Shown here one piece after another: positions 1,844 through 58,427 of a DNA stretch of 58,427 bases (the first letter of the stretch is position 1; every line of letters begins with the position of its first letter). A program made the translations under genes and the position numbers. Under the pieces are notes generated by a model, which was not told where the DNA came from, did no database searches, and saw only the letters and a program-made list of their open reading frames with translations. Source of the DNA: an uncultured Alphaproteobacteria bacterium (GTDB lineage: Bacteria; Pseudomonadota; Alphaproteobacteria; CAAHEQ01; UBA3637); assembly GCA_944392585.1 (NCBI GenBank), contig CALXXA010000002.1, positions 1 to 58,427 of the forward strand. Reading direction: 5' to 3'.

Positions 1844-1844
1844 A

Positions 1845-2079: not shown

Positions 2080-2080
2080 T

Positions 2081-3103: not shown

Positions 3104-3257
3104 CCTTTTCTCTCAATATTTTAATTTATTGTTAAGGCACACCACTCACTTATTAAAGTTTATCATATGTTCTTTTTAAAGTCAACAATATGTAAAAACA
3201 TTTCGACATAGAAAAAAAACTTGCTTTTTATTCATATGCTTCATATACTGCTTTATC

Positions 3258-36334: not shown

Positions 36335-36345
36335 ACAGAACAACC

Positions 36346-37602: not shown

Positions 37603-37609
37603 GGGAAAA

Positions 37610-40435: not shown

Positions 40436-40464
40436 AAATTACATTTTCAATTAACTCTAACGTT

Positions 40465-40491
40465 CTTTAAAAGAGCTTTCTCCTTTTAAAG
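40465..40491 (+). terminator. weak AT-rich hairpin after the VirB6-like array
   Basis: ctttaaaag (40465-40473) pairs with cttttaaag (40483-40491) around a 9-nt loop, 30 nt after the stop of paralogue C. The stem is AT-rich and the T-run is poor. Confidence 0.3.
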
Positions 40492-40591
40492 AAATAACTT
40501 TTTCAAAAAAAAATTCATTTTTTTTATTTTTTGTCTATTTTCTCATGAAAAAATCTGCTATAAAGAAATACGATAAAAAGGAGGTAAATCT

Positions 40592-41563
40592 ATGGAAGAA
40601 ATTATTTTCCCTAATCAAATTCGTATGATTCGCCGAACACGCGGTAAAACGATGAAAGAAATTGCCAGCATTTTGAATGTTAGTTTATCTGCCATCAGCA
40701 AAATAGAAAAAGGATATCGACGTATTGATGATAAACAATTGACACAAATAGCTCAATTTCTAGCATGTCCCAAAGAAAGTATTTTTGTTGTGGAACAAAC
40801 CTCTCAACCGGAAGTCTTACAGGCTTGGCAAAGGGAACAAAACCGGCGGAAACAAATTAATGAAAAAAGTGGTTTAAAGACATTAGGTGCCGGATTAAGG
40901 TACATTCGCGGAGAAAAGATGCTTACATTATATGATGTTTCTAAGAAAGCTGGAATGACTCTTTCCGTATATCATAGAATAGAGATCGGACAACGTGAGG
41001 TTACAGAGGAACAATTAAATAATATTGCTCATGCTTTAGGTTATACTCTAGAAACACTCCAGATAAGAATTTATGAGTTGGACATGGCCGGCTCTTTACA
41101 GGAATTTAAAAAAATAGGGAAATCCGGAATTTTCCACCCTAAAGGAGGATATAATGATCTACCCGTTACTTCTCTCGCTATGCATTTCTATCAACGAATC
41201 CCCGTTATAGGAATATGTGAAACAAACGGAACTGTTATCATTCCAGATCAAACATCTCTCCCACAAATAGAACCTAGTTTCATAAATAAAGAATCTCTTT
41301 ATGGTATTCAAATTAATTCAACCTGTCTTGGCTTCTCATTCCCACAACATCGAACCACTCTTATTGCCGATAAAAGCCAACGCCCATCAGATGGAGATAT
41401 AGCTCTATTTCATAAGGGAACACAATCTATTGCGGTTGGAATATGTAAAAAAGAAAATAATTCAGACATCTTTTTTATTCAGAAGAATCCAGATCGCAAA
41501 ATAAAATTATCCAGATCGGAATTGGAAAAATTAGATAAAGTAACTTATATTCAAATTACGTAG
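40592..41563 (+). CDS. XRE-family regulator with two HTH domains and a C-terminal S24/LexA-like domain lacking an obvious catalytic Ser
   Basis: 323 aa. HTH 1 is IRMIRRTRGKTMKEIASILNVSLSAISKIEKGYR. HTH 2 is LRYIRGEKMLTLYDVSKKAGMTLSVYHRIEIGQR. The C-terminal roughly 130 aa begin IPVIGICETNG and end with a beta-rich region like CI/LexA C-domains, but I see no GDSM-type Ser motif. AAGGAGG RBS. Confidence 0.75.
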   Translation: MEEIIFPNQIRMIRRTRGKTMKEIASILNVSLSAISKIEKGYRRIDDKQLTQIAQFLACPKESIFVVEQTSQPEVLQAWQREQNRRKQINEKSGLKTLGAGLRYIRGEKMLTLYDVSKKAGMTLSVYHRIEIGQREVTEEQLNNIAHALGYTLETLQIRIYELDMAGSLQEFKKIGKSGIFHPKGGYNDLPVTSLAMHFYQRIPVIGICETNGTVIIPDQTSLPQIEPSFINKESLYGIQINSTCLGFSFPQHRTTLIADKSQRPSDGDIALFHKGTQSIAVGICKKENNSDIFFIQKNPDRKIKLSRSELEKLDKVTYIQIT

Positions 41564-41586
41564 CTATAATGGACAAAGGGTAAATA

Positions 41587-42384
41587 ATGGCTGATATTAA
41601 AACATGGAAAAAAGATTTCCTCGCTGAGCGTAAGAAAAAAGAAGAAGCTCCTTCTTCCATTGCTCAACGTTTTATCAATATCTACCGCCAGCTCCCAATC
41701 CTAGGAGAAGAAGCTGTTAAAAAATATAATGACTTATTAATATCACAAACAACCGCAGAAGTTTTAATCGCTCTAACAAACTTACCAGGCGGGGAAGAAA
41801 TCAGAGAGTATATCAATTTTTTAAAACATAAGAATTTAGAAGAAAGAGAAGAACTGGAATCGAGTCAAAAAGCAAACTTATCTCTCCCCAAAGCAGAAGA
41901 ATTATCTCCTTTGTGGGAAACATTGGGAATAAATTCCGTTTCTCATGTAAATGCACAAACGGCCGTCAATGATGTTGTTCAAACTGTTATTTCGATAGGG
42001 AAAAAAGATATTGAAAACCTAAAAAAACAAATTCTTCCTTTTATTCATCGACAAAATGAAGACGTTTCCAACATCTTAAAGTATATCATCGTTGATTCTG
42101 ATATAGAAAAAATGCAACAGACTCTAACCCAGGCTATAAAGAAAATATCTTCCCTTCAAGAAAATAATGAACGCATTTTGAATTCTTTATTTGAACAAGC
42201 GGAAGTTAATCGTCTTTTTTCTCAAGAAGATATAATTTCCTCAAAGGAGAAACAAGAAAATAATATAAATACGCCTAAAAAATCTTCTCCGTCAAAAGCT
42301 GTTTTTACAGCGACAACAAAAAATAAACGGCTTCATCCATTACCAAAATATTCCGTTGATTTAATAGAGGAGGAAGACAGCTGA
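41587..42384 (+). CDS. hypothetical coiled-coil protein
   Basis: 265 aa, Glu/Lys-rich helical, starting 23 nt after the regulator gene. No family recognised. Confidence 0.5.
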   Translation: MADIKTWKKDFLAERKKKEEAPSSIAQRFINIYRQLPILGEEAVKKYNDLLISQTTAEVLIALTNLPGGEEIREYINFLKHKNLEEREELESSQKANLSLPKAEELSPLWETLGINSVSHVNAQTAVNDVVQTVISIGKKDIENLKKQILPFIHRQNEDVSNILKYIIVDSDIEKMQQTLTQAIKKISSLQENNERILNSLFEQAEVNRLFSQEDIISSKEKQENNINTPKKSSPSKAVFTATTKNKRLHPLPKYSVDLIEEEDS

Positions 42385-42445
42385 TTTTAAGCAATCATTA
42401 ACCTTCTTATTTTATATATAAATATAGTTTTTATGTGAGGAAAAA

Positions 42446-43951
42446 ATGCCAACCCAGGAACAACTAAAACCACTAATAGAAGCTTTAACAGCATACAAAC
42501 AAGATCAACAAACGTTACAACCTGTCGTAGATACGGCTTTGACTATTTATGGGCAAGATTGGACAACTGCTTTAGCAAACGATCTAGAAAATTTACAAAA
42601 CGTTGACACGACAACCTTAACATTTTTAAAAGAAAAAGCAAATCATGCTATTTATTACTATGGAGCCCTGACTGCTTGGGAAGAGGCTCATCATTACTTA
42701 AATTCAACAAATCCTATTGATCCAAACTTATTAAAAGAACGCTTGCCTATTTTAGAATATTGGTTATCTTTATTCGGAGATGAAGGAAACAAGGTAAATG
42801 GAAAATTAAAGCAACTTTTTGTTAATATTTCTCCTGTACAACCGGGGGAAACTTCTTCACTGTCTTCCGAAACATTGAAGGGGGATTCGGATATCTCTGC
42901 AGACAATCAAGAGACTTCCTCTATTCAACAACTACATAATGACCGATCCGAAGTAGAACCGGTTGCGGAAATGACATCTTCTTTTGAAACCTCTGACAGT
43001 TCTTCCCCCGCCGTGAAATTAGAGGAGAAAGAATCCTTACCCCAAAGCTCCCTTTCGGAGGAGTCCGCTCCTTTTTATCCAGCAAATATTTCCGAAGATA
43101 CTCGTTTAAGTGAAGAAGATATACTAGAAGCAACCGCTTATTCTTCACAACCTGAATTGGGAAATATAGAAAATCAAGAAGAAAATACAAGTTTTCCAGT
43201 CCAAGAAGAACCGGATTCGGAATATCCGCTAGAAGAACAAAATACTTCTTTTAACGAAACAGAACCTTTAGAAGATGAGTTGATAGAAACGTCTGAACAG
43301 CCGACAGTTTCTGTTCCAGAAATCGTTCAGGAAGATCTAAATGTGGTTCCATCGCAAGAGATATCCGAAAAAGGAGATTCTTCAAAGAATTGGGAAATAA
43401 ATAATTATTTAAAAGAAAAAGAACTATATGAACAAGTTGTCGCATGGGTTACGGCGAAATGTATTCGCATGGGAAATATTGAATTAACAGCCTATCCACA
43501 TTATGGTTTTATTGTCGATTTAATGCAATCTTTAAAAGAGAATATCCAAAATTTATTAAGCAACCCACTACTTACCGAGATTATAGAAACACAGTTAAAA
43601 GAAGGTCGTAAAGGATTAGAAGGTTTTTTAAAAGTTCTTGAAACGGAATTAGCACACTTACCCGAGATAGAGAGTCAACCTTCGGATGCGATTATAGAAG
43701 GAATAGATGCGCGCTCTATTCTAGGGCAAATAGACACCAGCAATAAAAAAGAATATTTAGGTCCGGCTCCAGATGGATTTGAGTTGATTGAGGATCCTTA
43801 TGAGAAAAAAGAAGATATCGCCAAAGAAGATCTCTTAAAAGCATATGAAAAAGCCGAAGAAGATACGGGAGATTCAATAAACCATTTAAATATTCTGGAA
43901 GAAGAAACTTCACAATCTCAAGAAACCCAAACAACACCACGGAAAGGATAA
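42446..43951 (+). CDS. hypothetical highly acidic protein
   Basis: 501 aa. The central roughly 200 aa are extremely Glu/Ser/Pro-rich and look disordered, flanked by helical N- and C-terminal domains. No signal peptide seen. Confidence 0.5.
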   Translation: MPTQEQLKPLIEALTAYKQDQQTLQPVVDTALTIYGQDWTTALANDLENLQNVDTTTLTFLKEKANHAIYYYGALTAWEEAHHYLNSTNPIDPNLLKERLPILEYWLSLFGDEGNKVNGKLKQLFVNISPVQPGETSSLSSETLKGDSDISADNQETSSIQQLHNDRSEVEPVAEMTSSFETSDSSSPAVKLEEKESLPQSSLSEESAPFYPANISEDTRLSEEDILEATAYSSQPELGNIENQEENTSFPVQEEPDSEYPLEEQNTSFNETEPLEDELIETSEQPTVSVPEIVQEDLNVVPSQEISEKGDSSKNWEINNYLKEKELYEQVVAWVTAKCIRMGNIELTAYPHYGFIVDLMQSLKENIQNLLSNPLLTEIIETQLKEGRKGLEGFLKVLETELAHLPEIESQPSDAIIEGIDARSILGQIDTSNKKEYLGPAPDGFELIEDPYEKKEDIAKEDLLKAYEKAEEDTGDSINHLNILEEETSQSQETQTTPRKG

Positions 43952-43956
43952 ACAGA

Positions 43957-45450
43957 ATGCATATGAGATATATTTTAATGACTTGCATTTTAGCTTCTAC
44001 AAGTCTCGCTTTATTAGCGTGTCAACATCGAACAGCATCTTTACCTTATATGACAAAGGCTTCTTATATATCCTCTCCGGATTTTTCGAAGTCTGAAACA
44101 GGATTTTTATCGTCTCCGAGTTTAGAAAAACAAAACCCACTTCAAACTTCATCATCTTTTTATACTCCGCAAAGAAATTCTTCATACAAAGGAGTAAATA
44201 ATGCGGGAATAGTTCCTGTTATTAAGGGGAAAGAAGATTCGATCCATCCGCAAGGAGAGAATAATTATTATAGCTCACGACAGACTCGGTCGGCAGAGTT
44301 AACGCCTCAGGATATAAGAACGTCGCCACAAAAGCAGCTGCCTTGCACTCAATCGAAAGTTCCCCCTATGTTGCAAGGACAAACTTCAACGGACATGGTT
44401 AATATAGAAACGCCAATGCGCTGTCGTGTTCCGGAGCCGACATCTCGCATTATTTCAGATATTCCTTTAACACAGGGAGATTTTGAACTGACTCGAGTAG
44501 AAGAAAATGATGCTCTGCCACGTTATGAAGTCAATGGATATACCTTTGATAATCAACCTTTAGATATGGCGATTCAAGTTCTTGTATCCGAAGCAGATAT
44601 AAATGTCTATTCAGATGATGGCTTATTTCCCGATATGTCGGCACAAGATATCAGAGGAGAATTATCAGCTGTTATAGAAGAACTGACAGATTCGGCAGAT
44701 GCCTATGCTCATTATGACGCGAGTAAAAAAAGGTTGTATTTGTCTCACTGGGCTCGGTTTAGATTAAAAGTCCCCGGAGGATATATAGGAATGTATGCAG
44801 TTTTAGACGCCTTAAGAGGAGCTAATATTACGAACGTACAACCTGATTGGGGACAAAATGAACTTTATTTCCGTGTGACGAAATCACAAGAAGCCATTAT
44901 TCGCCGTTTAATTTCTTATTTGAAAGAAGATCCTCGTCTTTTAATGCTTGACATAAACGTTTATAAAGTTTACCCCAAAGGGGGTGCAAATATCTCATGG
45001 AGAAACGTTATTCAAAGCTTCGGAGATTATAAAGTGAATATGTCCATAAACGGTCTGCAAGGACGAATGATTATAACCGATCATCAAGAAGAGCAAAATT
45101 CATTTTTAAATAATCTAAAAGCATACGCTCAAGTTGATTTAGTTTCAAAAGGCGTCGCTGTTATGCCTAACGGATGGAAAGTTCGTTTTGACATAGGTCA
45201 GTGTTCATTTACAAACACTCCAGAAAAAGATTTATCTCTGCTATTACAGAGCAAAATACAAAGCACAGACCGCATAGAATCGAACATTGCGTTAGATACA
45301 GTGAATGGAGAAGTAACATCTTTTTACTCATTTTACAGTATAGATGATGATTTAAATATTGTCGGTATCCCCGGCACAGTTTTCAATCAAAGCACCGTCA
45401 TAGAGTATTTCATTACGATGAAACCTCGGATTATGCGTCTTATAAAATAA
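43957..45450 (+). CDS. outer-membrane lipoprotein with secretin-like N0 and C-terminal domains (type IVb PilN/BfpB/TcpC-style)
   Basis: 497 aa. Lipobox SLALLAC and a disordered Ser/Pro/Gln linker. FDNQPLDMAIQVLVSEADINVYSDD...LSAVIEELTDSADAYAHYDASKKRLYL resembles a secretin N0/NolW-like domain. LMLDINVYKVYPKGGANISW ... FLNNLKAYAQVDLVSKGVAVMPNGWKVRFDIGQ ... NIVGIPGTVFNQSTVIEYFITMKPRIM follows the order of the secretin-domain consensus. Recognition is by eye only. Confidence 0.5.
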   Translation: MHMRYILMTCILASTSLALLACQHRTASLPYMTKASYISSPDFSKSETGFLSSPSLEKQNPLQTSSSFYTPQRNSSYKGVNNAGIVPVIKGKEDSIHPQGENNYYSSRQTRSAELTPQDIRTSPQKQLPCTQSKVPPMLQGQTSTDMVNIETPMRCRVPEPTSRIISDIPLTQGDFELTRVEENDALPRYEVNGYTFDNQPLDMAIQVLVSEADINVYSDDGLFPDMSAQDIRGELSAVIEELTDSADAYAHYDASKKRLYLSHWARFRLKVPGGYIGMYAVLDALRGANITNVQPDWGQNELYFRVTKSQEAIIRRLISYLKEDPRLLMLDINVYKVYPKGGANISWRNVIQSFGDYKVNMSINGLQGRMIITDHQEEQNSFLNNLKAYAQVDLVSKGVAVMPNGWKVRFDIGQCSFTNTPEKDLSLLLQSKIQSTDRIESNIALDTVNGEVTSFYSFYSIDDDLNIVGIPGTVFNQSTVIEYFITMKPRIMRLIK

Positions 45451-45466
45451 AATAAAAGGGAAAGAA

Positions 45467-46138
45467 ATGACTATAGAAAAGAAACCTATATTAAAAGCAC
45501 CGATGCCTCCTTCTGGAATAAAGTCTCCGGCGGAAGCGAAGATATCCGCCTATACTCCAAGCATGAAAACAAATTCATTACCGAATGAAGTTGCATCAGG
45601 GAATCCGGGACAAAATACATCTATGCCACAACCTTCGTATGGATTAAGGGGAGAAGATTCTTCTGGGAATAAGCCGGAGAATTTTTCAAAGAATCAATTG
45701 ACGGAGGAACAACCCTCTGTATCGCCCGGTTCTGGTCTATATGATAATAATTTTGCGGCTCAATTTAATTTACCGCCCTCTATATTGACGACCAAAGCGA
45801 TGAGTTTTATTCTTGCGGGAGTATTCTTTTTTGGGATTATATTTGGAGCGAATGTTTTCGGAACCAGTACAACGACACATGGTCTACAAGGAGTTATTTT
45901 GAATCCTGGAGTTCCAGAAGGAAGGAAGCGCTGTGGGATAGCCGAAAAGACAGAAGGATGTGTTTTATTTATGATGAATGCATCACAACGGGACAGAGAA
46001 GTTCGTTCATTTTATGAACAAGCAGCGGCGATAACGAATGTTCCGGCGTATACCATAGAAATGGGAAATATCACATATGCGTCAACAATTATTCGTCCTG
46101 GCTATTTTGCACAAATAAATATTCCTCCGATACGGTAA
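45467..46138 (+). CDS. bitopic membrane protein (disordered N-terminus, one TM helix, about 90-aa C-terminal domain)
   Basis: 223 aa. Single TM helix MSFILAGVFFFGIIFGANVF. It starts 16 nt after the secretin-like gene and is the last gene of that operon. Confidence 0.45.
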   Translation: MTIEKKPILKAPMPPSGIKSPAEAKISAYTPSMKTNSLPNEVASGNPGQNTSMPQPSYGLRGEDSSGNKPENFSKNQLTEEQPSVSPGSGLYDNNFAAQFNLPPSILTTKAMSFILAGVFFFGIIFGANVFGTSTTTHGLQGVILNPGVPEGRKRCGIAEKTEGCVLFMMNASQRDREVRSFYEQAAAITNVPAYTIEMGNITYASTIIRPGYFAQINIPPIR

Positions 46139-46160
46139 CGCATTATATTTTAAGATAAAA

Positions 46161-46196
46161 AAAAATATAATCTCTTTAAAAAGAGATTATATTTTT
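46161..46196. terminator. bidirectional terminator between convergent operons
   Basis: aaaaatataatctc (46161-46174) pairs with gagattatattttt (46183-46196) around an 8-nt loop. An A-run flanks one side and a T-run the other. Confidence 0.65.
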
Positions 46197-46227
46197 ATGG
46201 ATATAGGCTTCAAATTATTAACTTTTA

Positions 46228-46983
46228 TTACTCACTGGTAAATTTGCGACAAAATGCCTTACCTTCTGAAACAATCTTGAAACGCTGCGGATAACATACC
46301 TCGGCGGTTACACCATTACCGCCTGCCATTTCAAATAAGCGTAAACCTTCACACTTCAATAAAGATTCTTTTCTTTTTGACCAATCACACTCTTTTTTCG
46401 CAACATCCGTGTTCCCCAAATTCTTTTCACACGAAGAACTTTCCTGCCCATCGATCTTCTTCTTCTCATAGTAAGAAGGCCTCTCGGCCTCATGAGCACA
46501 CCTACAAAAAGGCAAGTTATATCTCGTTACATTTTGTCCACTTCCTTCACAATCCCAACCATCCTCATTATATCCTTTTATATTAAAACACGTCTCATTC
46601 TCCATAGAAAAATCCGGGGTAGCCGTAAATTTTATCTCTAAATAACCTGTTCCAAGCGGATCGGCCGTTACAATCCCTCCATTATTTATATCGTCAAAGG
46701 GGAACGCAAGCAAATTGTCCCTATTACCTTTCGCCCATTCTTCCACATCATGTTTATAAATCTTATGGATTAAATCTGGAGTTATCTCATCTGCCGTTAA
46801 CAATTTTGCACCAAAAGAATTACACCATGATGCTCTGTTTTTCGCATCTAAACTTATTGTGCTTACATAATAGATATAACCATCTATTTCTGCTGTTTTA
46901 TATGCAAGTACACCATTATTATCTGCAAGTACACCATTATTATAAGAAAAGAACAAAAGTATCAGTAAAAATATTTTTCGCAT
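46228..46983 (-). CDS. secreted Cys-containing protein with lectin-like W-C-x3-G motif
   Basis: 251 aa. Signal peptide MRKIFLLILLFFSY and 10 Cys. IDGYIYYVSTISLDAKNRASWCNSFGAKLLTADE resembles IGGYVEEGKYIRSDIMLNWWSAGAWCLANGKKWASIGD in the C-terminus of the 709-aa pilin-like protein. GGGAGG RBS lies 18 nt after the stop of the 955-aa gene, so the two are probably co-transcribed. Confidence 0.55.
   Translation of the reverse strand: MRKIFLLILLFFSYNNGVLADNNGVLAYKTAEIDGYIYYVSTISLDAKNRASWCNSFGAKLLTADEITPDLIHKIYKHDVEEWAKGNRDNLLAFPFDDINNGGIVTADPLGTGYLEIKFTATPDFSMENETCFNIKGYNEDGWDCEGSGQNVTRYNLPFCRCAHEAERPSYYEKKKIDGQESSSCEKNLGNTDVAKKECDWSKRKESLLKCEGLRLFEMAGGNGVTAEVCYPQRFKIVSEGKAFCRKFTSE
46903..46944 (-). 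repeat. 21-bp tandem duplication in the 5' coding region of the 251-aa gene
   Basis: (a/c)tgcaagtacaccattattat occurs twice in tandem (46903-46923 and 46924-46944). It encodes NNGVLAD-NNGVLAY directly after the signal-peptide hydrophobic core. Confidence 0.9.
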
Positions 46984-47001
46984 ATTTTGCCTCCCACGGC
47001 T

Positions 47002-49869
47002 TTAATAATTATTAGTTTGATTCACACATTTCCCCACAAACTTCATTTGCTTGCCTTCATTTTTCATGATAAATCCCTTTGCCAAAGATGCTATACTACA
47101 TACTTGCCCTTCATTACACTTGGTGTCGGAATCATCTCCTAAAGTTACCTTTGATTCACCATCCTCCTTATCCGTACCAATGGTAAGGTTTTTTAAATTA
47201 TCCTCATTCTCATTCACATCTGCCCACTTTCCTATATAAAGAAGTCCGCTAGAATTTTTAGTCGGGGAATCTTCCCCAAAATACGCTGCAAGAGTCTTGA
47301 CAAGATAACAAAATTTTAGGGGTTTGCTTTTCGCTGCTAGTTGAGCTTTTGCTTTTTCTTCTCCACTCGCCCTTATCGAGAAAGAATTACTCGGGCTTCC
47401 CCATCGTACACATTGTTGTGGGAATGGGTCTTTGAAGTATGTATTAGTCGAGCAATAACATCCTACACCCGGACATTCACTAAAAAAGAACTCTCGATAA
47501 CACTCACCAGCTGCATCAAGACTACATTCTTTTTCTGCTGGATAATACCAGGGTACATTCGTTTCCTTCCCACAAGCTACTCCGATATTGTTTTCATGGT
47601 ACCCTTCTCTATACTGTAAACACGCTGGATAATAACCGCTCTTCTGTGTATTATACACATCGTCGTACGTAGTCTTCTTTAGGTTACTAATTCCGCCATT
47701 AATGGCAGATATACAATAACCCAAATCCGTCGGTATAGTCACGGTTAAAGTACAATCATAATCTCCGGAAGCCTCTTCTAAACAAACTTGACTTTCATCA
47801 TCCCAATAATATCCTGATTTCGTACAACAGCTATCTGTGTTATAATATATCATTTCTTCAGAACAACATTTATTTTCACCAGGTATCCATGTTCCTCCTG
47901 CCTCTATACACCCGTCTTGAGTAGTTATTGACGTACACCCCTCTTTTTCCGACCATTTTCCCCCGGTTTTAGAACAACACGCATTTGTATTCGTCTCAAT
48001 TAATGACGGGGTACAACATTGATTTGACGCACCAATCCAAATTCCTCCCAAAGCAGAACAATCCTCTTCATTATCAGGAATATCAGTATCCAAATCAAAA
48101 CTACATCTCTGATCTAGATTAGGTTTGTCACAACATATAGTCTCTTCTTCTCCAGTATCTGTATCTTGAACAACTTTAGTTATTGTACAACACTCCCCAT
48201 CAACAACACCTGTCGCAGTAGAAGGACAACATGTTCCATTAATAACATTTTTCCTGTCAGCAGGGCAACAAACAATGTCACTATCAACGATTACAGGCTC
48301 TGTATCTTTTTCACAGCACTTAAAATTTTCTTCATTAATAAACGCCCAATTTCTACCCGCCGCCTCACAACATTCTTCTTTCTTCTCAATAGTACTTTCT
48401 TCCGAAAGAGTCTCATAATCTTTCGGACAACAATAGTTGTTCACAGCTTGATTCAGGTTTTGATTCAGGTTACAGCACATATTGTCTTTGCTTGTAAAAA
48501 CATACTCAGAACTGTTGATACAACACATTCCATTAGCATCGTCTGTTTTAACCATTGTCACCTTATCAACCCATACGCCTTTCTCATGCCCATCATAAGC
48601 GTTTTCACAACAAACCTGTGTATTTATGTTGCTCGGATCACAACATTGTTCACCCACCCAATGATAACCATTCGCTTCACAACACATTCCATTAGCATCG
48701 TCTGTTTTAACCATTGTCACCTTATTAACCCAATGATGCTTATTCGCTTCACAACATGCCTTTGAATCCGTTTTCCAAGTTTTATTATCATTTGTACAAC
48801 ACTCTCCATTTTTAATAAACTCACTATGGCAACAAAAAACTTGATTTCCTGATCCTGAAGGCTGATCGCCTTTATTACAACAAATCCCCTCATCATTAAA
48901 CCATTCATACAACCCTATACAACACATTCCATTAGCACCGTCTGTTTTAACCCCATCCTCATCGACCCAATGATAATTATTCGCTTCACAACATGCCTTA
49001 GTATCTGTGTCGTCCTTAGCACAACATGTCCCCTCAGCCCATACGCCTCCGTTTGCTTTACAACATGCCTTAGTATCTGTGTCGGCCTTAGCACAACATA
49101 TTCCATTAGCATCGTCTGTTTCAACCCCATTCTCATCAACCCAAGAACCTGCCTCATCATGCCCATTATAGGTGTTTTCACAACAAACCTGTGTAGTTAT
49201 GTTGTTCGGATAACAACATTGTTCACCCACAGCATAGCTACCCTCCGGACACTCAGAAGGAGGATCAATAGGATCAATAGGAACAATAGGATCAGGATTC
49301 GGTGTCGTAGGATCCGGGAAAAGATCCGAAACCGATGTATCATACGCAAAAACAAATGTATTCCTCTTTCCTTCCGAACACTCTGTAACTGTAAGAGATC
49401 CCGTACACTCTGAAATCCCTTTATCCCCTTGACATAAAAAAACTTCTCTTTTTATCGGAAATTCTTCTCTAACCATCTCTTGCAACCTCTTGCAAGCTCG
49501 ACCGGGAACTTCCTTAACTATAACATAAAATCTATTCCCTTTCCCCTTCTCATGCGCATAGTTAAAACCTCCTTGGTTCTCTTTGAAACCAACCAAATTA
49601 TACTTTTCCCCTGTCTCATAATTCTTCAAAGCCGGATTACTAAACGATTCCACGGCTCTTAAATCCACTTGCTTATATATCTGATTCGCTTGGTGCTTGG
49701 ACATCGCATATGCATATGCAACCAAAAAAAGAATACTCAATATCGCTACAACAGCTAAAACACCTAATATCTCTATAATGCTCCGCCCTTTTTCCGACTT
49801 GACAAAATGTCTCTTAAAATATGATAAATGACGATTCTGTTCCAATTTTTCCTTCAAATGTCTAAGCAT
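47002..49869 (-). CDS. giant Cys-Cys-repeat protein with type IV prepilin-like N-terminus (paralogue 1)
   Basis: 955 aa. A 28-aa basic leader ends in Gly, then RSIIE (Glu at +5) and a roughly 22-aa hydrophobic helix (ILGVLAVVAILSILFLVAYAYA), which is a class III/prepilin signal. There follow a small pilin-like domain, the Pro-rich linker PDPTTPNPDPIVPIDPIDPP, about 490 aa holding 27 CC dipeptides, and a unique roughly 265-aa C-terminal domain. AGGAGG RBS. Confidence 0.7.
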   Translation of the reverse strand: MLRHLKEKLEQNRHLSYFKRHFVKSEKGRSIIEILGVLAVVAILSILFLVAYAYAMSKHQANQIYKQVDLRAVESFSNPALKNYETGEKYNLVGFKENQGGFNYAHEKGKGNRFYVIVKEVPGRACKRLQEMVREEFPIKREVFLCQGDKGISECTGSLTVTECSEGKRNTFVFAYDTSVSDLFPDPTTPNPDPIVPIDPIDPPSECPEGSYAVGEQCCYPNNITTQVCCENTYNGHDEAGSWVDENGVETDDANGICCAKADTDTKACCKANGGVWAEGTCCAKDDTDTKACCEANNYHWVDEDGVKTDGANGMCCIGLYEWFNDEGICCNKGDQPSGSGNQVFCCHSEFIKNGECCTNDNKTWKTDSKACCEANKHHWVNKVTMVKTDDANGMCCEANGYHWVGEQCCDPSNINTQVCCENAYDGHEKGVWVDKVTMVKTDDANGMCCINSSEYVFTSKDNMCCNLNQNLNQAVNNYCCPKDYETLSEESTIEKKEECCEAAGRNWAFINEENFKCCEKDTEPVIVDSDIVCCPADRKNVINGTCCPSTATGVVDGECCTITKVVQDTDTGEEETICCDKPNLDQRCSFDLDTDIPDNEEDCSALGGIWIGASNQCCTPSLIETNTNACCSKTGGKWSEKEGCTSITTQDGCIEAGGTWIPGENKCCSEEMIYYNTDSCCTKSGYYWDDESQVCLEEASGDYDCTLTVTIPTDLGYCISAINGGISNLKKTTYDDVYNTQKSGYYPACLQYREGYHENNIGVACGKETNVPWYYPAEKECSLDAAGECYREFFFSECPGVGCYCSTNTYFKDPFPQQCVRWGSPSNSFSIRASGEEKAKAQLAAKSKPLKFCYLVKTLAAYFGEDSPTKNSSGLLYIGKWADVNENEDNLKNLTIGTDKEDGESKVTLGDDSDTKCNEGQVCSIASLAKGFIMKNEGKQMKFVGKCVNQTNNY
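48125..48838 (-). repeat. segment shared with the second pilin-like gene (copy in paralogue 1)
   Basis: 48125-48565 aligns by eye to 55618-56067 with about ten substitutions, one 3-nt indel and one 6-nt indel. 48725-48838 continues the match to 56068-56180. Paralogue 1 carries one extra unit of about 159 nt in between. Confidence 0.85.
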
Positions 49870-49980
49870 TCAAGCCTCCTATATTTACACCTATTGTACA
49901 ACATACACCATATTTCCATCCAGATGTCAAGCAATTTTAAAAAAAAATTCACTTTTACAATTCACAATAAACTATGAATT

Positions 49981-50022
49981 TAAAAAGAAAGAGAAGGTTT
50001 TAAAGACCTTCTCTTTTTTTTC
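49981..50022. terminator. rho-independent terminator downstream of tuf (copy 1)
   Basis: aaagagaaggt (49988-49998) pairs with accttctcttt (50006-50016) around a 7-nt loop. T-runs lie on both strands. It is 31 nt past the tuf stop. Confidence 0.8.
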
Positions 50023-50097
50023 TAAGTTATCTTGAAATAATTTTAGGTTACTTCAATATCTTGGAGACAACTCCAGCACCAACCGTGTGACCCCCTT
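49981..50097 (-). repeat. direct repeat copy 1: tuf 3' end plus terminator
   Basis: Identical base for base to 58311-58427 (offset 8330 nt). The match runs to the window edge, so its full length is unknown. Confidence 0.95.
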
Positions 50098-51238
50098 CCC
50101 TGATCGCAAACCTTAGTCCTTCATCCATCGCTACAGGAACTATCAACTTCACCGTCATCTTCACATTGTCTCCGGGCATCACCATCTCTACTCCCTCAGG
50201 CAACTCTATCGTCCCCGTCACATCCGTCGTCCGAAAGTAAAATTGAGGCCGGTAATTACTGAAAAATGGCGTATGACGTCCTCCTTCCTCTTTCGTCAAT
50301 ATATAACATTCCGCCGTAAACTCCGTATGCGGCGTTATCGTCCCAGGTGCCGCCAATACTTGGCCCCTCTCGACTTCTTCCCTCTTCGTGCCTCTCAATA
50401 ATACTCCAACATTGTCCCCGGCTTCCCCTTGGTCCAATAACTTCCGGAACATCTCTATCCCTGTACACGTCGTCTTCTGCGTCGGCCTTAAACCTACTAT
50501 CTCTACTTCATCTCCAACCTTTATTACTCCTCTCTCTATACGTCCCGTCACTACCGTCCCTCGTCCCGATATGCTAAAAACATCTTCTATCGGCATCAAA
50601 TACGGCTTGTCCTTCGGACGATCCGGTTGCGGAATATATCTATCAACCTCTTCCATCAACTTCACTATCGTATCATGCCCTATCTCCGGACGCGTCCCTT
50701 CCAATGCACATAACGCTGAACCTTTCACTATCGGTATCTCATCCCCAGGAAATTGATATGAACTCAATAAATCCCTAACTTCCATCTCTACCAATTCCAA
50801 TAACTCTGGATCATCTACCTGATCAACCTTGTTCATATATACTACCAACGCAGGAACTCCTACCTGCCTCGCTAACAATATATGCTCCCGCGTCTGCGGC
50901 ATCGGACCATCCGCCGCACTCACTACCAATATCGCTCCATCCATCTGCGCCGCACCAGTTATCATGTTCTTTACATAATCCGCGTGACCAGGACAGTCTA
51001 CATGCGCATAATGCCTATTCTTCGTCTCATACTCTACATGCGACGTGCTTATCGTTATCCCTCGCGCCCTCTCCTCTGGCGCCTTATCTATGTTCGCATA
51101 ATCTACAAACGAGGCTCCTCCCTGCTCCGACAATACTTTCGTTATCGCTGCCGTCAACGTCGTCTTCCCATGATCAACATGTCCTATCGTCCCTATGTTG
51201 CAATGGGGTTTAATCCTCTCAAACTTTTCTTTTGCCAT
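50048..51238 (-). CDS. tuf: elongation factor Tu
   Basis: 396 aa. Canonical EF-Tu ([25 protein letters not shown]). Confidence 0.97.
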
Positions 51239-51299
51239 CTCTCTATCTTCCTTCTCAAAAAAATGCTGCTCCTCTTAAAAGAAGAGCAGCTTATTTTAA

Positions 51300-53378
51300 T
51301 TAACCATTCATTTTTGCTTTAATTTCATCAGCAACTGCTTGTGGTACTTCAGCATAATGATCAAAGACCATAGTGTACTGTGCACGACCTTGGCTCATTG
51401 AACGCAAAGTACTGACATATCCAAACATGTTTGATAATGGAACTGTCGCATCTATTACTCGTGCATTTCCTCGCTGATCCATCCCGGAAACTTGACCTCG
51501 CCGACTATTTAAGTCTCCAATAATGTCTCCCATATAGTCTTCCGGTGTCACAACTTCAACTTTCATAACAGGCTCCAATAAAACCGGCCTGGCTTTCGCA
51601 ATTCCCTCACGGAAAGCTGCTCTTGCCGCGATTTCGAAAGCCATTGTTGACGAGTCAACATCATGATATGCCCCATCATATAAAGTCGCTTTAAAGTCTG
51701 TACACGGGAAACCTGCTAATACACCAGTTTCTTTCGCTTGTATCAATCCTTTTTCCACGCCGGGGATGTATTCTTTCGGAACATTTCCACCGACGACTTT
51801 ATTTTCAAATTGATACCCGGATCCTGCCGGAAGAGGTTCAAATAAAATTTTTACACGAGCAAATTGCCCGGCTCCTCCAGATTGTTTCTTATGCGTATAA
51901 TCACAATCATAGTTCTGTGTAATAGTCTCACGATACGCCACTTGAGGAGCTCCGACAATCGCATCTACACCAAATTCACGTTTCATACGATCAACAATAA
52001 TTTCCAGGTGTAATTCTCCCATTCCTTTAATAATGGTTTGCCCTGTTTCCGTATTCGACGTAACTCGAAAAGATGGATCTTCTGCCGCTAATCGACTTAG
52101 AGCATTCCCCATTTTTTCAATATCTCCTTTTGTCTTCGGTTCAACGGCGATTTCAATCACAGGCTCCGGAAATTCCATTTTTTCCAAAATAACTGGATGC
52201 GTTGGACTACATAAAGTTTCTCCTGTCGTCGTCATTTTTAAACCACATAAAGCGACAATATCTCCCGCACGAGCTTCTTTAATATCTTCACGATGGTTAG
52301 CATGCATTAATAACATGCGACCAACACGTTCTTTTTCGCCTTTAACAGAGTTTAAGACATAAGAACCACTTTCTAACACACCTCTATAAACACGCATAAA
52401 AGTCACAGAACCAACAAAAGGATCTGTCATAATCTTAAAGGCCAAGCCGGCAAAAGGAGCATCATCTTTAGATGCAACTTCAACATCTGAACCATCTTTT
52501 TCTGAAATTGCATGAGCCGGTGGAATATCTATCGGCGAAGGTAAATAATCTACAACTGCATCCAATAAAGGTTGAATCCCTTTGTTTTTAAAAGCCGTAC
52601 CACAAAAAACAGGAACAAATTTTTGTTCAATAGTTCCTTTTCGGATACACTTTTTCAAAGTCTCCATATCGGGTTCATTCCCTTCCAAATAGCTTTCCAT
52701 AGCAGCATCATCCATTTCAACTGCCATTTCAACTAATTCATTATAATACCGCTCTGCTTGTTCTTTAAGCTCAGCAGGAATCTCTTTTTCTTCAAAAGAA
52801 GCTCCTAAATCTTCGGAATGCCAAATAATCGCTTTTTTCTTTAAAACATCAACAATCCCGACAAAATCTGCTTCTGCTCCGATTGGTAAAGCCATCACCA
52901 TCGGTTTGGCTCCCAACCGCTCTTTAATCATATCTACGCAACGGAAAAAGTTTGCTCCGGTACGGTCCATTTTATTAGCAAAACAAATACGCGGAACACG
53001 ATATTTATCCGCTTGTCTCCAAACGGTTTCAGATTGAGGTTGAACTCCGGACACACCGTCAAAAACAGCAATGGCTCCATCAAGAACGCGTAAACACCGT
53101 TCAACTTCTACGGTAAAATCCACATGTCCCGGCGTATCAATAACATTAATACGATGCCCTTTCCAAAAAGCCGTCGTAGCTGCAGAAGTAATTGTAATTC
53201 CACGTTCCTGCTCTTGTTCCATCCAATCCATAGTAGCCGCACCATCATGGACTTCACCAATCTTATGAGACTTTCCCGTATAATACAAGATACGTTCTGT
53301 TGTTGTTGTTTTACCAGCATCAATATGAGCCATAATCCCAATATTTCTATATAATTCAATTGGAGTTGTTCGTGCCAT
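51300..53378 (-). CDS. fusA: elongation factor G
   Basis: 692 aa. Canonical EF-G ([28 protein letters not shown]). Confidence 0.97.
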
Positions 53379-53396
53379 AACCTAAAATCCCCCTAT

Positions 53397-53867
53397 TTAC
53401 CACTTATAATGAGAGAACGCTTTATTCGCTTCGGCCATTTTATGAACATCTTCGCGTTTACGAATAGCATTTCCCCTATTATTAAAAGCATCCATTAATT
53501 CGCCAAATAATTTTTCTTCCATTGTTTTCTCGGAACGTTTTCTGGCTGCCTCTATAATCCACCGAATAGCCAAAGCTTGTCTGCGATCCGGACGAACTTC
53601 AACAGGCACCTGATAAGTTGCCCCGCCCACTCTGCGAGATTTGACTTCAACCACAGGCTTAACATTTTCCAATGCATTATGGAAAATTTCCAATCCATTT
53701 TGCTTTGATTTTTCTTCTAACCTGGCGATAGCGCCATAAACGATGCGTTCAGCTGTACATTTTTGGCCTCGCATCATAACACTATTCATAAACTTAGCGA
53801 CAACTTTATCTCCGAATTTAGCATCCGGATTAATTTCGCGTTTTTCTGCTGCGTGTCTACGTGACAT
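53397..53867 (-). CDS. rpsG: 30S ribosomal protein S7
   Basis: 156 aa. [12 protein letters not shown]...[11 protein letters not shown] is the canonical S7 sequence. Confidence 0.97.
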
Positions 53868-53879
53868 TTTTTACTCCTT

Positions 53880-54251
53880 CTATTTAGGCCGTTTCGCTCC
53901 GTACAAGGATCTGGCTTGCTTACGATTAGCAACCCCTTGAGTATCCAACGTACCGCGAATAATATGATAACGAACACCGGGCAAGTCCTTGACACGTCCG
54001 CCACGAATCAGGACGACGCTATGTTCTTGAAGGTTATGACCTTCCCCCGGGATATAACTGGTAACTTCAAAGCCATTTGTCAAACGAACACGTGCGACTT
54101 TACGCAAAGCGGAGTTTGGTTTCTTTGGCGTTGTAGTATACACACGCGTGCAAACGCCTCTCTTTTGAGGACAAGCCTGCAACGCCGGAACTTTATTTCT
54201 TTTAACAGAAGCTTTTCTAGGCTTTCTGGTTAACTGATTAATAGTAGGCAT
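53880..54251 (-). CDS. rpsL: 30S ribosomal protein S12
   Basis: 123 aa. [12 protein letters not shown]...[16 protein letters not shown] is the canonical S12 sequence. Confidence 0.97.
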
Positions 54252-54420
54252 ATTATTTCCCTATAAATAAAAATTAAAAAAATCTTTGAACGACCTCTTT
54301 CAGGCAATTCAAAGCACCTATCCCGACTCACTGCTCAGATAAATCCGACTGGCCGGGGACTTTCTATCAAAGCCGTTAGCAAAGTCTTCATTACTTGCCC
54401 AACTTCGGAAAGCTGAGTGT

Positions 54421-54449
54421 ATGTAAACATAGTTTTCATCTTATGTCAA
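54421..54449 (-). promoter_or_regulatory. candidate str operon promoter
   Basis: On the minus strand, TTGACA (54444-54449), a 17-nt spacer, then TTACAT (54421-54426). This would give a leader of about 170 nt before rpsL. Confidence 0.3.
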
Positions 54450-54607
54450 GATATTTTTATAGCTCTATTGTCTTTTTATAAAATCTTCCTCTTCCCCAAA
54501 AGCTTTTTTATATCATAATCAACATGGATATTTTTACACCTTTATCTTTAAAAAAAACACCCTGTAAACACATAAAGCCTCATTATTTCGTTAAACACAT
54601 CATGTTT

Positions 54608-54629
54608 AAGGGGTGCCTAAGCACCCCTT
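54608..54629 (-). terminator. GC-rich hairpin directly after the 709-aa gene
   Basis: aaggggtgc (54608-54616) pairs with gcacccctt (54621-54629) around a 4-nt loop, 3 nt past the stop codon. It is an unusually GC-rich stem for this genome. The U-tract on the minus strand is poor. Confidence 0.55.
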
Positions 54630-54632
54630 CCT

Positions 54633-56762
54633 CTATTTTACACAAATCGCGCGACCTCCTGAACTTCTAGATCCTAAAAAAGTCTCCGAATCACTTATTA
54701 TTTCTATTATTTTCCCGTTTTCTTCTATATATCCGCCTCCTTGTACTTGATATGCAACACCCTCCATTGAAGCAGTTGACGTCCATCCACTTATCTGAGC
54801 AGAAAATTCAGAACATTTTGAGTCTGCTATTTTTTTACATGCATCATCTTCAGTCAAACCCTCCCCTGTAGTTAAGCGCGTATAACATCCCAGATCCGTT
54901 ACAGATCCTCCCGCCCAATTCGGGCAAAGATCATCTCCGATGGATGCCCACTTTTTCCCGTTAGCAAGACACCAAGCTCCGGCACTCCACCAGTTCAACA
55001 TTATATCAGAGCGAATATACTTACCTTCTTCAACATAACCTCCTATCTGCTGACACGTACCATACAATGCTTTTGGGGTATCCGTTGTTAGCTTTTTTTT
55101 ACGATTTCTATCTTCATATTGTGCATTACAAAATGTATTTGGCGGGCAAGGAACCTGATAGCTTAACGCAAGTACGTTATTATGACTTGCTTTAGAACAA
55201 ACCGGAGCAGCAGAACTATTTACTTCCCCACCTTCACACCCTGTACTAAAGAACGGACCATTATCATATCCGTAGCTTGGACGACAATTAGTATTAAGTG
55301 CCGAGCAATCCTCTCCTGCACATTGCGGATCCATTGATGATACCCAACATATAGTTTCTTTTGTATTTAACTTACCAATAATACGACAGCTTGTTTCTGC
55401 AGTACATTTATCTTCTTCTTTTTCTCCGTTCCATGTATAGCCTGCCGCCTCACAACACATTTGAGTGTTCCGTATTCGGGTAAGAGTACAACAATATGGT
55501 GTTTCATTTTCCTTTTGAATCCATTCTCCATCTTCGGAAATACATGTTTCTTCATCTGTGGGAACAGGATCTTCTAAATCATTTTCTCCTTCATCTGTAC
55601 ACCGAGGATCCAAGGGATTGTCACAACATATAGTCACTTCTTCTCCAGTATCTGTATCTTGAACAACTTTAGTTATTGTACAACACTCCCCATCAACAAC
55701 ACCTGTCGCGGTAAAAGGACAACATGTTCCATTAATAACCTTTTTCCTGTCAGCAGGGCAACAAACAATGTCACTATCAACGATTACAGGCTCTGTATCT
55801 TTTTCACAGCACTTAAAATTTTCTTCATTAATAAACGCCCAATTTCTACCCGCCGCTTCACAACATGCTATTTTCTTCTCAATAGTACTTTCTTCCGAAA
55901 GAGTCTCATAATTTTTCGGACAACAATAAAAGTTGTTCACAGCTTGATTCAGGTTTTGATTCAGGTTACAGCACATACTGTCTTTGCTTGTAAAAACATA
56001 CTCAGAACTGTTGATACAACACATTCCATTAGCATCGTCTGTTTCTGTTTCAACCATTGTCTCCTTATTAACCCAATGATGATATTTCGCTTCACAACAC
56101 GTCTTTGAATCCGTTTTCCAAGTTTCATTATCATTTGTGCAACACTCTTCATTTTCAATAAACTCATTATGGCAACAAAAGCTCCCAAACATTTTGCCGT
56201 TAGGACAAGGATCAGGTTCTGGATCAGGGTCTGGAATATTTAAAGTCCCCCGAACACCTATGTCATACGCAAACACAAATGTATTGTTTTCTCCTTCTTC
56301 ACACTCGGAAACGGCTCCCATACATTCAGTGGCGTTCAAGTCTCCCTGACATAAGAAAACTTCTCTTTCTATCGGGAAATCTTCTAGGACCATTTTTTGT
56401 AACATTTTACATACTCTCACAGGAACCTTCTTAACAATCACATAAAATTTCTTATTAAACCCTTTCTCTTGTGAATAGGAAATATTACTCAGCTCCTTTT
56501 CAAATCCGATCAAATTATATTTTGCCCCAGGCTCATAATTCATCAAAGCCGGATTACTAAACGATTCCACTGCTCTTAAATCTACTTGCTTATATATCTG
56601 ATTCGCTTTATGCTTGGAAATCGCATATGTATATCCTGTAATAGCGGCTATGCTCAATATACCAATAATCGCTAAAACAGCTAATACCTCAAGCATACTT
56701 CGTCCAGTATCCGCTTTAGTCTTGTATGTTTTAACATAATTTTCTTTTAGATTCTTGAGCAT
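54633..56762 (-). CDS. giant Cys-Cys-repeat protein with type IV prepilin-like N-terminus (paralogue 2), lectin-motif C-terminus
   Basis: 709 aa. A 20-aa leader ends in Gly, then RSMLE (Glu at +5) and the hydrophobic helix VLAVLAIIGILSIAAITGYTYA. The same pilin-like domain as paralogue 1 follows (ANQIYKQVDLRAVESFSNPAL, FYVIVK, REVFLCQGD, NTFVFAYD), then the linker PDPDPEPDP and 14 CC dipeptides. The roughly 330-aa C-terminal region is unrelated to paralogue 1 and contains NWWSAGAWCLANGKKWASIGD. Confidence 0.7.
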   Translation of the reverse strand: MLKNLKENYVKTYKTKADTGRSMLEVLAVLAIIGILSIAAITGYTYAISKHKANQIYKQVDLRAVESFSNPALMNYEPGAKYNLIGFEKELSNISYSQEKGFNKKFYVIVKKVPVRVCKMLQKMVLEDFPIEREVFLCQGDLNATECMGAVSECEEGENNTFVFAYDIGVRGTLNIPDPDPEPDPCPNGKMFGSFCCHNEFIENEECCTNDNETWKTDSKTCCEAKYHHWVNKETMVETETDDANGMCCINSSEYVFTSKDSMCCNLNQNLNQAVNNFYCCPKNYETLSEESTIEKKIACCEAAGRNWAFINEENFKCCEKDTEPVIVDSDIVCCPADRKKVINGTCCPFTATGVVDGECCTITKVVQDTDTGEEVTICCDNPLDPRCTDEGENDLEDPVPTDEETCISEDGEWIQKENETPYCCTLTRIRNTQMCCEAAGYTWNGEKEEDKCTAETSCRIIGKLNTKETICWVSSMDPQCAGEDCSALNTNCRPSYGYDNGPFFSTGCEGGEVNSSAAPVCSKASHNNVLALSYQVPCPPNTFCNAQYEDRNRKKKLTTDTPKALYGTCQQIGGYVEEGKYIRSDIMLNWWSAGAWCLANGKKWASIGDDLCPNWAGGSVTDLGCYTRLTTGEGLTEDDACKKIADSKCSEFSAQISGWTSTASMEGVAYQVQGGGYIEENGKIIEIISDSETFLGSRSSGGRAICVK
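55618..56180 (-). repeat. segment shared with the first pilin-like gene (copy in paralogue 2)
   Basis: Aligns to 48125-48838 (see that feature). It encodes MCCINSSEYVFTSKD.MCCNLNQNLNQAVNN..CCP..YETLSEESTIEKK..CCEAAGRNWAFINEENFKCCEKDTEPVIVDSDIVCCPADRK.VINGTCCP.TATGVVDGECCTITKVVQDTDTGEE.TICCD. Confidence 0.85.
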
Positions 56763-56890
56763 TGTGGCCTCCTATGTTTTACACTTTTACAAGGATATAC
56801 ATATTTTAAAAATTAAATCAATACAAATTGTATATTTTCATAATAATTCTTAACTTTATTATCAAAAATTAATGAATACGCCTTAAATAT

Positions 56891-58201: not shown

Positions 58202-58241
58202 ATCAAAACTCCTTTATTTACATTTTTGAGTTAATATATGT

Positions 58242-58269
58242 ATAATACAGATTTGTATATTTTTGTCAA
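58242..58269 (-). promoter_or_regulatory. candidate promoter of the ankyrin / pilin-like paralogue 2 unit
   Basis: On the minus strand, TTGACA (58264-58269), a 16-nt spacer, then TATTAT (58242-58247), about 40 nt upstream of the ATG at 58201. A homologous TTGACA (49925-49930) lies upstream of paralogue 1. Confidence 0.4.
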
Positions 58270-58310
58270 TTTTTTTATAGAATAATTTAACAATTCAATG
58301 ACTTTTTTAA

Positions 58311-58352
58311 TAAAAAGAAAGAGAAGGTTTTAAAGACCTTCTCTTTTTTTTC
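58311..58352. terminator. rho-independent terminator downstream of tuf (copy 2)
   Basis: Identical sequence to the terminator at 49981-50022. Confidence 0.8.
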
Positions 58353-58377
58353 TAAGTTATCTTGAAATAATTTTAGG

Positions 58378-58427
58378 TTACTTCAATATCTTGGAGACAA
58401 CTCCAGCACCAACCGTGTGACCCCCTT
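58378..58427 (-). CDS. tuf: elongation factor Tu, second copy (3' end only; gene continues beyond the window)
   Basis: The last 16 codons plus the stop are identical to 50048-50097 (...[14 protein letters not shown]). Confidence 0.85.
   Translation of the reverse strand, partial: GGHTVGAGVVSKILK

Follow-up and report, generated by a model that had tools for sequence, protein, structure and literature searches.

Contig CALXXA010000002.1 of an uncultured Alphaproteobacteria bacterium (GenBank assembly GCA_944392585.1), a complete contig of 58,427 nucleotides (nt) that we call the window, carries two large minus-strand genes, A and B, that are separated by rpsL-rpsG-fusA-tuf. Both are complete open reading frames (ORFs) with AGGAGG ribosome-binding sites. 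When the two proteins were cut after each Cys-Cys pair, they resolved into the same series of parts: first a pilin-like N-terminal domain, followed by a Pro/Asp linker, by modules of 9-27 residues that form a chain, and by a tip domain of ~270 amino acids (aa). Within otherwise diverged sequence, the chains share a block of about 450 nt that is nearly identical between the genes, a pattern that we attribute with high confidence to ectopic gene conversion.

Two pilin-like genes and the block they share

The coding sequences were compared by blastn, which aligned 48125-48573 of A with 55618-56075 of B at 95.4% identity; this alignment has 458 columns, with 12 mismatches and three openings of gaps. 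When the block core was aligned with MAFFT, 13 of the 449 ungapped columns carried a substitution, and there were two in-frame indels, of 6 nt and of 3 nt. An earlier note on this DNA had placed the block here, with 'about ten' substitutions and two short in-frame indels, and was right to within a few bases. The resumption of the match that it described, at 48725-48838 versus 56068-56180, was recovered by blastn as 48679-48837 versus 56016-56180 (89.7% over 165 columns). The 5' flanks proved more diverged, as it had said, both in nucleotide identity (78.8% by blastn for the N-terminal part, 49426-49717 versus 56344-56634) and in the synonymous distances given below. Its remark that the 3' parts are unrelated held for the last ~250 residues, and blastn found no nucleotide match between the 3' parts, but homology persists over the first ~80 residues after the block (38% aa identity, BLASTP E = 1e-7).

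In a codon-based sliding window, identity stayed between 55% and 80% over the N-terminal domain, apart from a single 90-nt peak of 92-93%, and rose to 87-100% across the block. It then fell sharply at 48125/55618 to ~50-58%, and from there to the random level of ~35%. Both homologous flanks of the block are old (79% identity in nt on one side, 38% in aa on the other), so the patch replaced sequence inside paralogues that already existed. The features of both genes and of their surroundings are collected in Table 1.

Table 1. Features of genes A and B and of the region around them, in window positions (dS, synonymous divergence; dN, non-synonymous divergence)
Feature	Position	Strand	Description
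Gene A	47002-49869	minus	955 aa: pilin-like N-terminal domain, Pro/Asp linker, 27 Cys-Cys-ending modules, ~270-aa C-terminal domain (ORF list, module dissection)
N-terminal type IVb-pilin-like domain of A	49330-49869	minus	leader ending in Gly, Glu at +5, hydrophobic helix; ~79% nt identity to B
Older shared segment in A	48733-48837	minus	modules HSEFIKNGECC / TNDNKTWKTDSKACC; ~90% identical to B, 10 differences/105 nt, dS ~0.10
A-only insertion	48574-48732	minus	159 nt, three Cys-Cys modules; splits the homologous region; bounded by the repeated module tail VTMVKTDDANGMCC (repeat family D3)
Probable recent conversion tract in A	48125-48573	minus	tail of the 'TDDANGMCC' module and modules INSSEYVF... 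to ...TGEEETICC
Post-block part of A	47002-48124	minus	first ~80 residues homologous to B, remainder unrelated; hypervariable between strains, dN/dS ~4
Gene B	54633-56762	minus	709 aa, paralogue of A: same N-terminal domain type, 14 Cys-Cys modules, unrelated C-terminal domain with C-type-lectin-like motif
N-terminal type IVb-pilin-like domain of B	56238-56762	minus	hhalign, AlphaFold2 model
Older shared segment, B counterpart	56076-56180	minus	blastn and allele comparison
Presumed donor counterpart in B	55618-56075	minus	aligned to the A tract
Post-block part of B	54633-55617	minus	between-strain dN/dS ~2.6; C-type-lectin-like motif NWWSAGAWCLANGKKWASI
tuf copy 1 and terminator	49981-51252	minus	1272-nt direct repeat: 14 nt upstream, gene, 67 nt with terminator
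tuf copy 2, last 117 nt	58311-58427	minus	3' end and terminator; 100% identical to 49981-50097; contig stops within the repeat
Ankyrin-repeat gene (ank)	56891-58201		upstream of B; matches a known family (Pfam/NCBIfam scan)
Helix-turn-helix (HTH) protein	40592-41563		family match in Pfam/NCBIfam scan

The N-terminal domains of both genes have the layout of a class III signal: Gly, then RS(I/M)(I/L)E, then a hydrophobic helix (~20 residues expected). The leader of A ends in ...EKG before RSIIEILGVLAVVAILS and that of B in ...DTG before RSMLEVLAVLAIIGILS, with Arg, an unusual residue, at +1. The motif GRSM.E is invariant in the family and in its PilS_N-bearing relatives, and the leader motif occurs at only two loci in the window, those of A and B. 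A profile search with the N-terminal domain retrieved proteins carrying Pfam Bundlin (PF05307) and PilS_N (PF08805), and hhalign against such proteins gave a probability of 99.1% (E = 7e-19) over 119 columns that reach the conserved Cys of the globular part. AlphaFold2 modelled the domain of B with a predicted local distance difference test score (pLDDT) of 84.8, as a long helix (residues 23-69) followed by a 4-stranded sheet. A Foldseek search with the N-terminal domain model found no match in the PDB at E <= 0.001, and a PDB sequence search with A and B returned nothing. Pfam and NCBIfam scans of both proteins gave nothing above threshold: B matched PilS (PF08805; E = 0.023, 15.2 bits vs a cutoff of 22) and N_methyl (PF07963; E = 0.063) below it, and A matched neither of these two models. 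Sequence comparison therefore supports 'pilin-like' as a statement of homology to type IVb pilins, with scores below those set for membership of the curated families.

Divergence within the genes and among strains

The contrast between the block and the rest of the genes was clearest at synonymous sites. By Nei-Gojobori estimates, A and B differ in the N-terminal domain by a dS of 1.14 and a dN of 0.285 (dN/dS 0.25), compared to a dS of 0.05 and a dN of 0.045 (dN/dS ~0.9) over the whole block; for its main piece (A codons 442-583) the values were 0.037 and 0.027. Across the block dS ranged over 0.037-0.099, making synonymous divergence 20-30 times lower there than in the N-terminal domain. Together with a dN/dS of ~0.9, this means that constraint at the protein level cannot explain the patch. 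A maximum chi-square test put the breakpoint at A codon 345, with which the shared region opens, and gave a value of 143; in 2000 permutations the largest value was 24.9, and the observed one was never reached (0/2000). The longest identical run between A and B was 116 nt, whereas the 99.9th percentile in permutations was 52 nt.

One feature of the N-terminal domain stands apart from its general divergence. Over a 29-codon stretch (49615-49701 versus 56532-56618, SKH.ANQIYKQVDLRAVESFSNPAL), A and B show just 3 synonymous differences, and no part of the protein family as a whole is more conserved than the motif found there. The stretch is either a second, older and small conversion patch or a site of constraint at the nucleotide level.

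A protein search found six relatives, and their contigs, with further cluster members, provided five A-type sequences, six B-type sequences and one chimeric sequence from independent assemblies. Further alleles were sought in Joint Genome Institute (JGI) metagenomes by protein pattern and by exact DNA, and none was found there; among 5.8 billion proteins searched, the block was held by no gene beyond the A and B types. Both genes are intact in all strains. Their N-terminal domains are under purifying selection (dN/dS 0.13-0.31) and are conserved between strains (98-100% for the two genes, 99.5-100% for A), so A and B are real genes and not silent cassettes.

Comparison of these alleles yielded a phylogeny of the block that is incongruent with that of its surroundings. 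Over the block core, A and B of the window differ at 13 of 449 positions, whereas the B alleles of the window and of contig L003 differ at 27 of 446: paralogues within one genome are closer than orthologues between strains. In the 105 nt just upstream of the core, A alleles cluster with A and B alleles with B (A-B, 10 differences; B-B, 1). This reversal is significant (Fisher's exact p = 0.0012, with few alleles). The block itself is layered. Its first 222 nt place the alleles in a star without A or B clades. In the central 111 nt the window's A and B are identical, and the L003 B allele differs at 6 sites and by a 12-nt indel. In the last 125 nt the window's A is placed among the B alleles, with 1 difference from B of L003 and 4 from its own B. 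The last sub-block of the A allele in contig L005 is 7% away from every B and from A of the window. An independent assembly, L001, carries an A block that is identical to the window's and distinct from B, and its companion contig, L007, has the B version.

The module chain also varies among strains, and it does so at A. All dissected B-type sequences (window, L003, L002) share one eleven-module order, and the B alleles of L035, L036 and L037 are 98% identical to B of the window (37-40 substitutions, a 6-nt length difference). The whole block is carried by the A alleles of the window, L001 and L034; that of L004 has only three of the block modules, elsewhere in the chain, and that of L005, which comes from the same sample as the B allele L035, is without most of the block. 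L001 and L034 have an extra, near-perfect tandem duplication of 237 nt, comprising five modules at 48679-48999, that makes A 79 aa longer. In a Logan contig of run X1, depth over 48743-48962 was 12.9 vs 6.2 in the flank; because depth is doubled there, the 955-aa A of the window may be a collapsed copy and not a real shorter allele.

Two further observations concern the chain of A. The L005 allele (250-3290 of its contig) is read as two ORFs (350 and 663 aa), broken by a frameshift in a repeated ENTY..HE module and not in a homopolymer, which may reflect either a join made by the assembler inside repeats or a genuine out-of-frame recombination product. Residues 310-411 of the window's A fell just short of the cutoff for the Galaxin-like di-cysteine repeat model of Pfam (27.5 bits vs 28), and the chain of Cys-Cys modules may adopt a fold similar to that of the di-Cys repeats in coral galaxins.

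The tip domains, lastly, diverge in a different manner. Between strains the tip of A showed 47 non-synonymous vs 3 synonymous differences (dN/dS ~4.2) and 75 vs 4.8 (~4.1), and that of B a dN/dS of ~2.6. Such ratios point to strong diversifying selection on both tips, as is usual for a surface that is exposed and contested. The changes fall in several scattered clusters and not in one variable repeat, and no template-repeat copy lies near the genes; a diversity-generating retroelement was accordingly rejected. In B, a motif in the tip (NWWSAGAWCLANGKKWASIGDDLC; 54636-55478, residues ~560-630) matches (E = 2.7e-8) a protein of 1190 aa in which Pfam recognizes seven C-type lectin domains, as well as several unannotated proteins of ~130 aa. 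The tip of B may thus be a C-type-lectin-like binding domain.

Probable gene conversion and its alternatives

The explanation that we favor, and consider very probable as a whole, is ectopic gene conversion between two old paralogues of a putative surface-protein family, by which a B-to-A patch of ~450 nt, moved by RecA-type recombination, re-tooled the modules of A. Each of the two has a type IVb-pilin-like N-terminal domain, a Cys-Cys module chain and a variable tip. Homologous recombination would have copied ~450 nt (eight modules) non-reciprocally between two loci that lie in direct orientation 7.5 kb apart, at a time comparable to the depth of strain divergence within the species. The flanking homology would have come from the '...TDDANGMCC' module tail, a repeated one, at the 5' side and from the conserved '...TICCD' junction at the 3' side, and an earlier exchange would account for the segment of ~90% identity that lies immediately upstream. 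Any crossover between A and B would delete rpsL-rpsG-fusA-tuf (tuf1), and for this reason only patch-type, non-crossover products should survive. The presumably exposed stalk of A would in this way be re-tooled with modules that are kept in B, and conversion would add to the module duplication and deletion, and to the diversifying selection, that already vary A between strains. The mechanism itself is well known; the protein family is undescribed.

Transfer from B to A seems the likely direction. The module order of B is constant in all B-type sequences compared, while A alleles gain, lose and move modules, and on this ground we regard B as the stable holder and A as the acceptor. Several points weigh against the favored explanation or its details. 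The direction is a matter of parsimony over few alleles. These alleles (~5 of A and 4 distinct ones of B) all come from short-read metagenome assemblies with depths of 3-10x. The layered signal within the block would fit more than one event, or B alleles that have recombined between strains, or donor DNA from another strain.

The last of these possibilities can be put more broadly: the block may have entered A from outside, from the B DNA of another strain or from a third paralogue, by ectopic recombination after uptake. The final 125 nt of the block, in which A is closer to the L003 B allele than to its own, and the star-like first 222 nt would both fit such a donor. The central 111 nt, identical to the resident B and distinct from that of L003, do not, and no third gene type holding the block emerged from the protein search. 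We regard an outside source as rather unlikely; it would in any event change the donor and not the kind of event, as the same two gene types recombine. That no transfer took place, and that the block is merely under much stronger purifying selection than its flanks, might be suggested by its preserved reading frame and conserved Cys-Cys spacing. This reading has next to no probability in our view, given the low dS and the dN/dS of ~0.9 in the block compared to the N-terminal values, the absence or rearrangement of the block in other A alleles, and the greater differences between orthologous B blocks than between paralogues within the genome. Nor do we give appreciable weight to an assembly artefact, in which B reads were threaded into A of the window. 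Assemblers do mishandle this region, as seen in the tuf flanks, which are joined in all four combinations, and in the chimeric contig L002. Threading, however, would have yielded a block identical to that of B, not one with 13 substitutions and two indels, and the same A-specific block was obtained independently in L001, with the B version on its companion contig L007.

A rival of a different kind is programmed, high-frequency cassette exchange of the Neisseria pilE/pilS or Helicobacter babA/babB kind, with B as an archive and A often rewritten within one population. It gains some appeal from the A module chain, which differs by the five-module, 237-nt length difference between otherwise almost identical strains (window versus L001/L034), from the strong diversifying selection on the tip domains, and from the A alleles of L034 and L001, which differ at only 12 positions, all of them in the block and all to the B state. 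Those 12 'converted' sites, however, are exactly the closed-bubble sites of the de Bruijn graph, and in the Logan contigs of runs X1 and X2 these sites form two further mosaics whose depth is the sum of both copies, as the bubble-popping of two 97%-identical copies yields. Our view within populations extends to such collapsed Logan contigs, a search for Nanopore, PacBio or RNA runs having listed none; since the apparently fresh conversion in L034 and the X1 and X2 contigs are inseparable from bubble collapse, we did not use them as evidence. The locus has no silent partial copies, both genes being complete and under selection, and the whole window has no G-quadruplex (G4) motif on either strand, which led us to reject G4-initiated pilin variation. 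The region 45000-58427 has no inverted repeats for switching, only terminator hairpins and chance 20-27-mers, and the genes are in direct orientation, so that a shufflon or other invertible segments were likewise rejected. No recombinase was found among the scanned neighboring proteins, which did not include every ORF of the window. Finally, 13 substitutions have accumulated between the A and B blocks since the transfer, which argues that exchange is not frequent in this lineage. We consider programmed exchange improbable. We are equally doubtful of its boldest form, a new class of giant type IVb-pilin-like adhesins that work as a two-locus variation system, with B as a living archive, the exposed chain of A repeatedly patch-converted in host-associated populations, crossovers forbidden by loss of the str operon, and the differences between L034 and L001 as real conversion products.

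Contig L002 was weighed separately as a possible recombinant. It reads fusA-tuf-ank, then a gene composed of the B N-terminus, the B block and the A C-terminus, then the sequence downstream of A. A real deletion of this kind would remove rpsL, rpsG and fusA. The fusA-tuf-ank join crosses the 1272-nt tuf repeat, which has twice the depth of fusA and rpsG, and the contig is probably the product of a double wrong turn at repeats; we rejected it as a recombinant.

Together, these results agree with the earlier note in reading the patch as a footprint of gene conversion or recent recombination, on the strength of the low dS of the block and the reversal of paralogue and orthologue distances. Uniform identity along the genes and a lack of variants among related genomes, both of which the note had held to speak against this reading, were the opposite of what was found in the sliding-window, dS and maximum chi-square comparisons on the one hand, and in the strain-dependent A and constant B chains on the other. 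Its proposal that the two loci exchange repeat cassettes holds on an evolutionary, between-strain timescale and mostly from B to A; it does not extend to the fresh-looking chimeras, which cannot be told apart from bubble-collapse or repeat errors of assemblers.

The surrounding region, known systems and the wider family

The window sequence is present in chicken-gut and other bird-gut metagenomes, and other contigs extend the map of the locus. On the coding strand the order is tRNA-Tyr, tRNA-Gly, tuf2, ank, B, rpsL, rpsG, fusA, tuf1, A; the second tuf copy follows tRNA-Tyr and tRNA-Gly in other contigs. An rlmB-like (SpoU-family) gene precedes tRNA-Tyr, the stretch past the contig end having been read from L008 and L011. 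In the usual arrangement, tufB and rpsL are separated by secE-nusG-rplKAJL-rpoBC, and tufA is followed by the S10 operon; at the window locus, neither is at its usual position. The pilin-like genes are placed as if at old rearrangement points beside the tuf repeats.

Public contigs join the two upstream flanks of tuf (fusA; tRNA-Tyr/tRNA-Gly) to its two downstream flanks (A; ank) in 4/4 combinations, and in Logan contigs tuf has a depth of 2x, compared to 1x for fusA and rpsG. Because of these promiscuous joins and the doubled depth, the tuf copies are taken to be near-identical over their full length. It follows that the fusA-tuf-A join of the window, like those of the other assemblies here, is an inferred one, and that homogenizing recombination acts on a second pair of direct repeats in this region too.

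Downstream of A lies a block of genes (34631-46138 on the plus strand and 46228-46983 on the minus strand) whose synteny with A is kept in other strains. The majority of its products match no Pfam or NCBIfam family; only the HTH protein (Table 1) has a match. The block encodes three tandem multi-pass membrane proteins (567, 418 and 941 aa) that have a CW(S/F)C motif in common, along with a lipoprotein of 497 aa and a Cys-rich protein of 251 aa, the latter with a 21-nt tandem repeat and a length of 251, 259 or 267 aa depending on the strain. No pilus-machinery family was matched among the neighboring proteins covered by the Pfam/NCBIfam scan.

The closest parallel to the exchange between A and B is found in Helicobacter pylori, where babA and babB, full-length paralogous adhesin genes, undergo interlocus (ectopic) gene conversion. 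In both cases two complete paralogues, presumably transcribed separately in the case of A and B, occupy different chromosomal sites, an old divergence is interrupted by near-identical patches attributed to homologous recombination, which for A and B was probably non-reciprocal as well, and the resulting mosaic or chimeric surface proteins differ between strains. The A/B family is unrelated to the Hop outer-membrane proteins; its unexchanged part is the pilin-like N-terminal domain and its exchanged part the Cys-Cys modules in the middle of the protein.

In the pilE/pilS system, the donors are promoterless, partial silent copies, a G-quadruplex initiator lies near the acceptor, and the product is a fibre subunit of ~160 aa. 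Pilin antigenic variation in Neisseria, for which a general description is available (PMC3899283), resembles the present case in that genes of the pilin type, conserved in their N-terminal part and variable beyond it, are altered by gene conversion from a donor to another locus, unidirectionally in Neisseria and probably so for A and B. The differences are nonetheless substantial: A and B are both complete, without promoterless partial copies and with purifying selection on their N-terminal domains; their window has no G4 motif; their proteins measure 955 and 709 aa; and they show one recent tract, already with 13 substitutions, so that a high frequency is not indicated.

Two other systems share single aspects with A and B. 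In R64-type type IVb pili, PilS is the pilin and PilV a tip adhesin whose C-termini are switched by a shufflon, through Rci and inverted sfx-type repeats. The N-terminal domain of A and B is homologous to PilS_N/Bundlin-bearing proteins, and here too a constant pilin-like N-terminus is combined with alternative C-terminal parts. Conversely, these parts belong to two separate genes that vary by homologous, not site-specific, recombination, with no invertible segments or inverted repeats and no Rci-type recombinase among the scanned neighboring proteins. The second is concerted evolution by gene conversion, as known for tufA and tufB in bacteria. Two direct tuf copies lie 8.3 kb apart in the same region as A and B, with the visible 117 nt fully identical; whereas tuf conversion keeps an essential gene uniform, conversion between A and B hits one patch and raises variety in A.

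The family extends beyond these two genes. Three related metagenome-assembled genomes (MAGs), labelled 'uncultured Alphaproteobacteria bacterium' (L016-L033), contain from 3 to 9 or more paralogues each. Every paralogue has the invariant GRSM.E leader motif and a cysteine content of 7-12%. In some pairs of these paralogues a 3' patch is far more similar than the N-terminal domain (in L023/L024, 97.5% over 279 nt vs 85%), which suggests that patch exchange is general in the family.

The two genes offer a case, well supported by statistics, in which ectopic gene conversion has shaped a probable surface protein of an uncultured gut bacterium. Movement of modules between loci matters for strain typing and for the quality of MAG assembly in this region. 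The genes also introduce an undescribed family in which a pilin-like anchor is joined to a shuffled chain of di-cysteine modules and to tip domains with a dN/dS of 2.6-4, proteins through which the bacterium is likely to meet its host, phages or other microbes.

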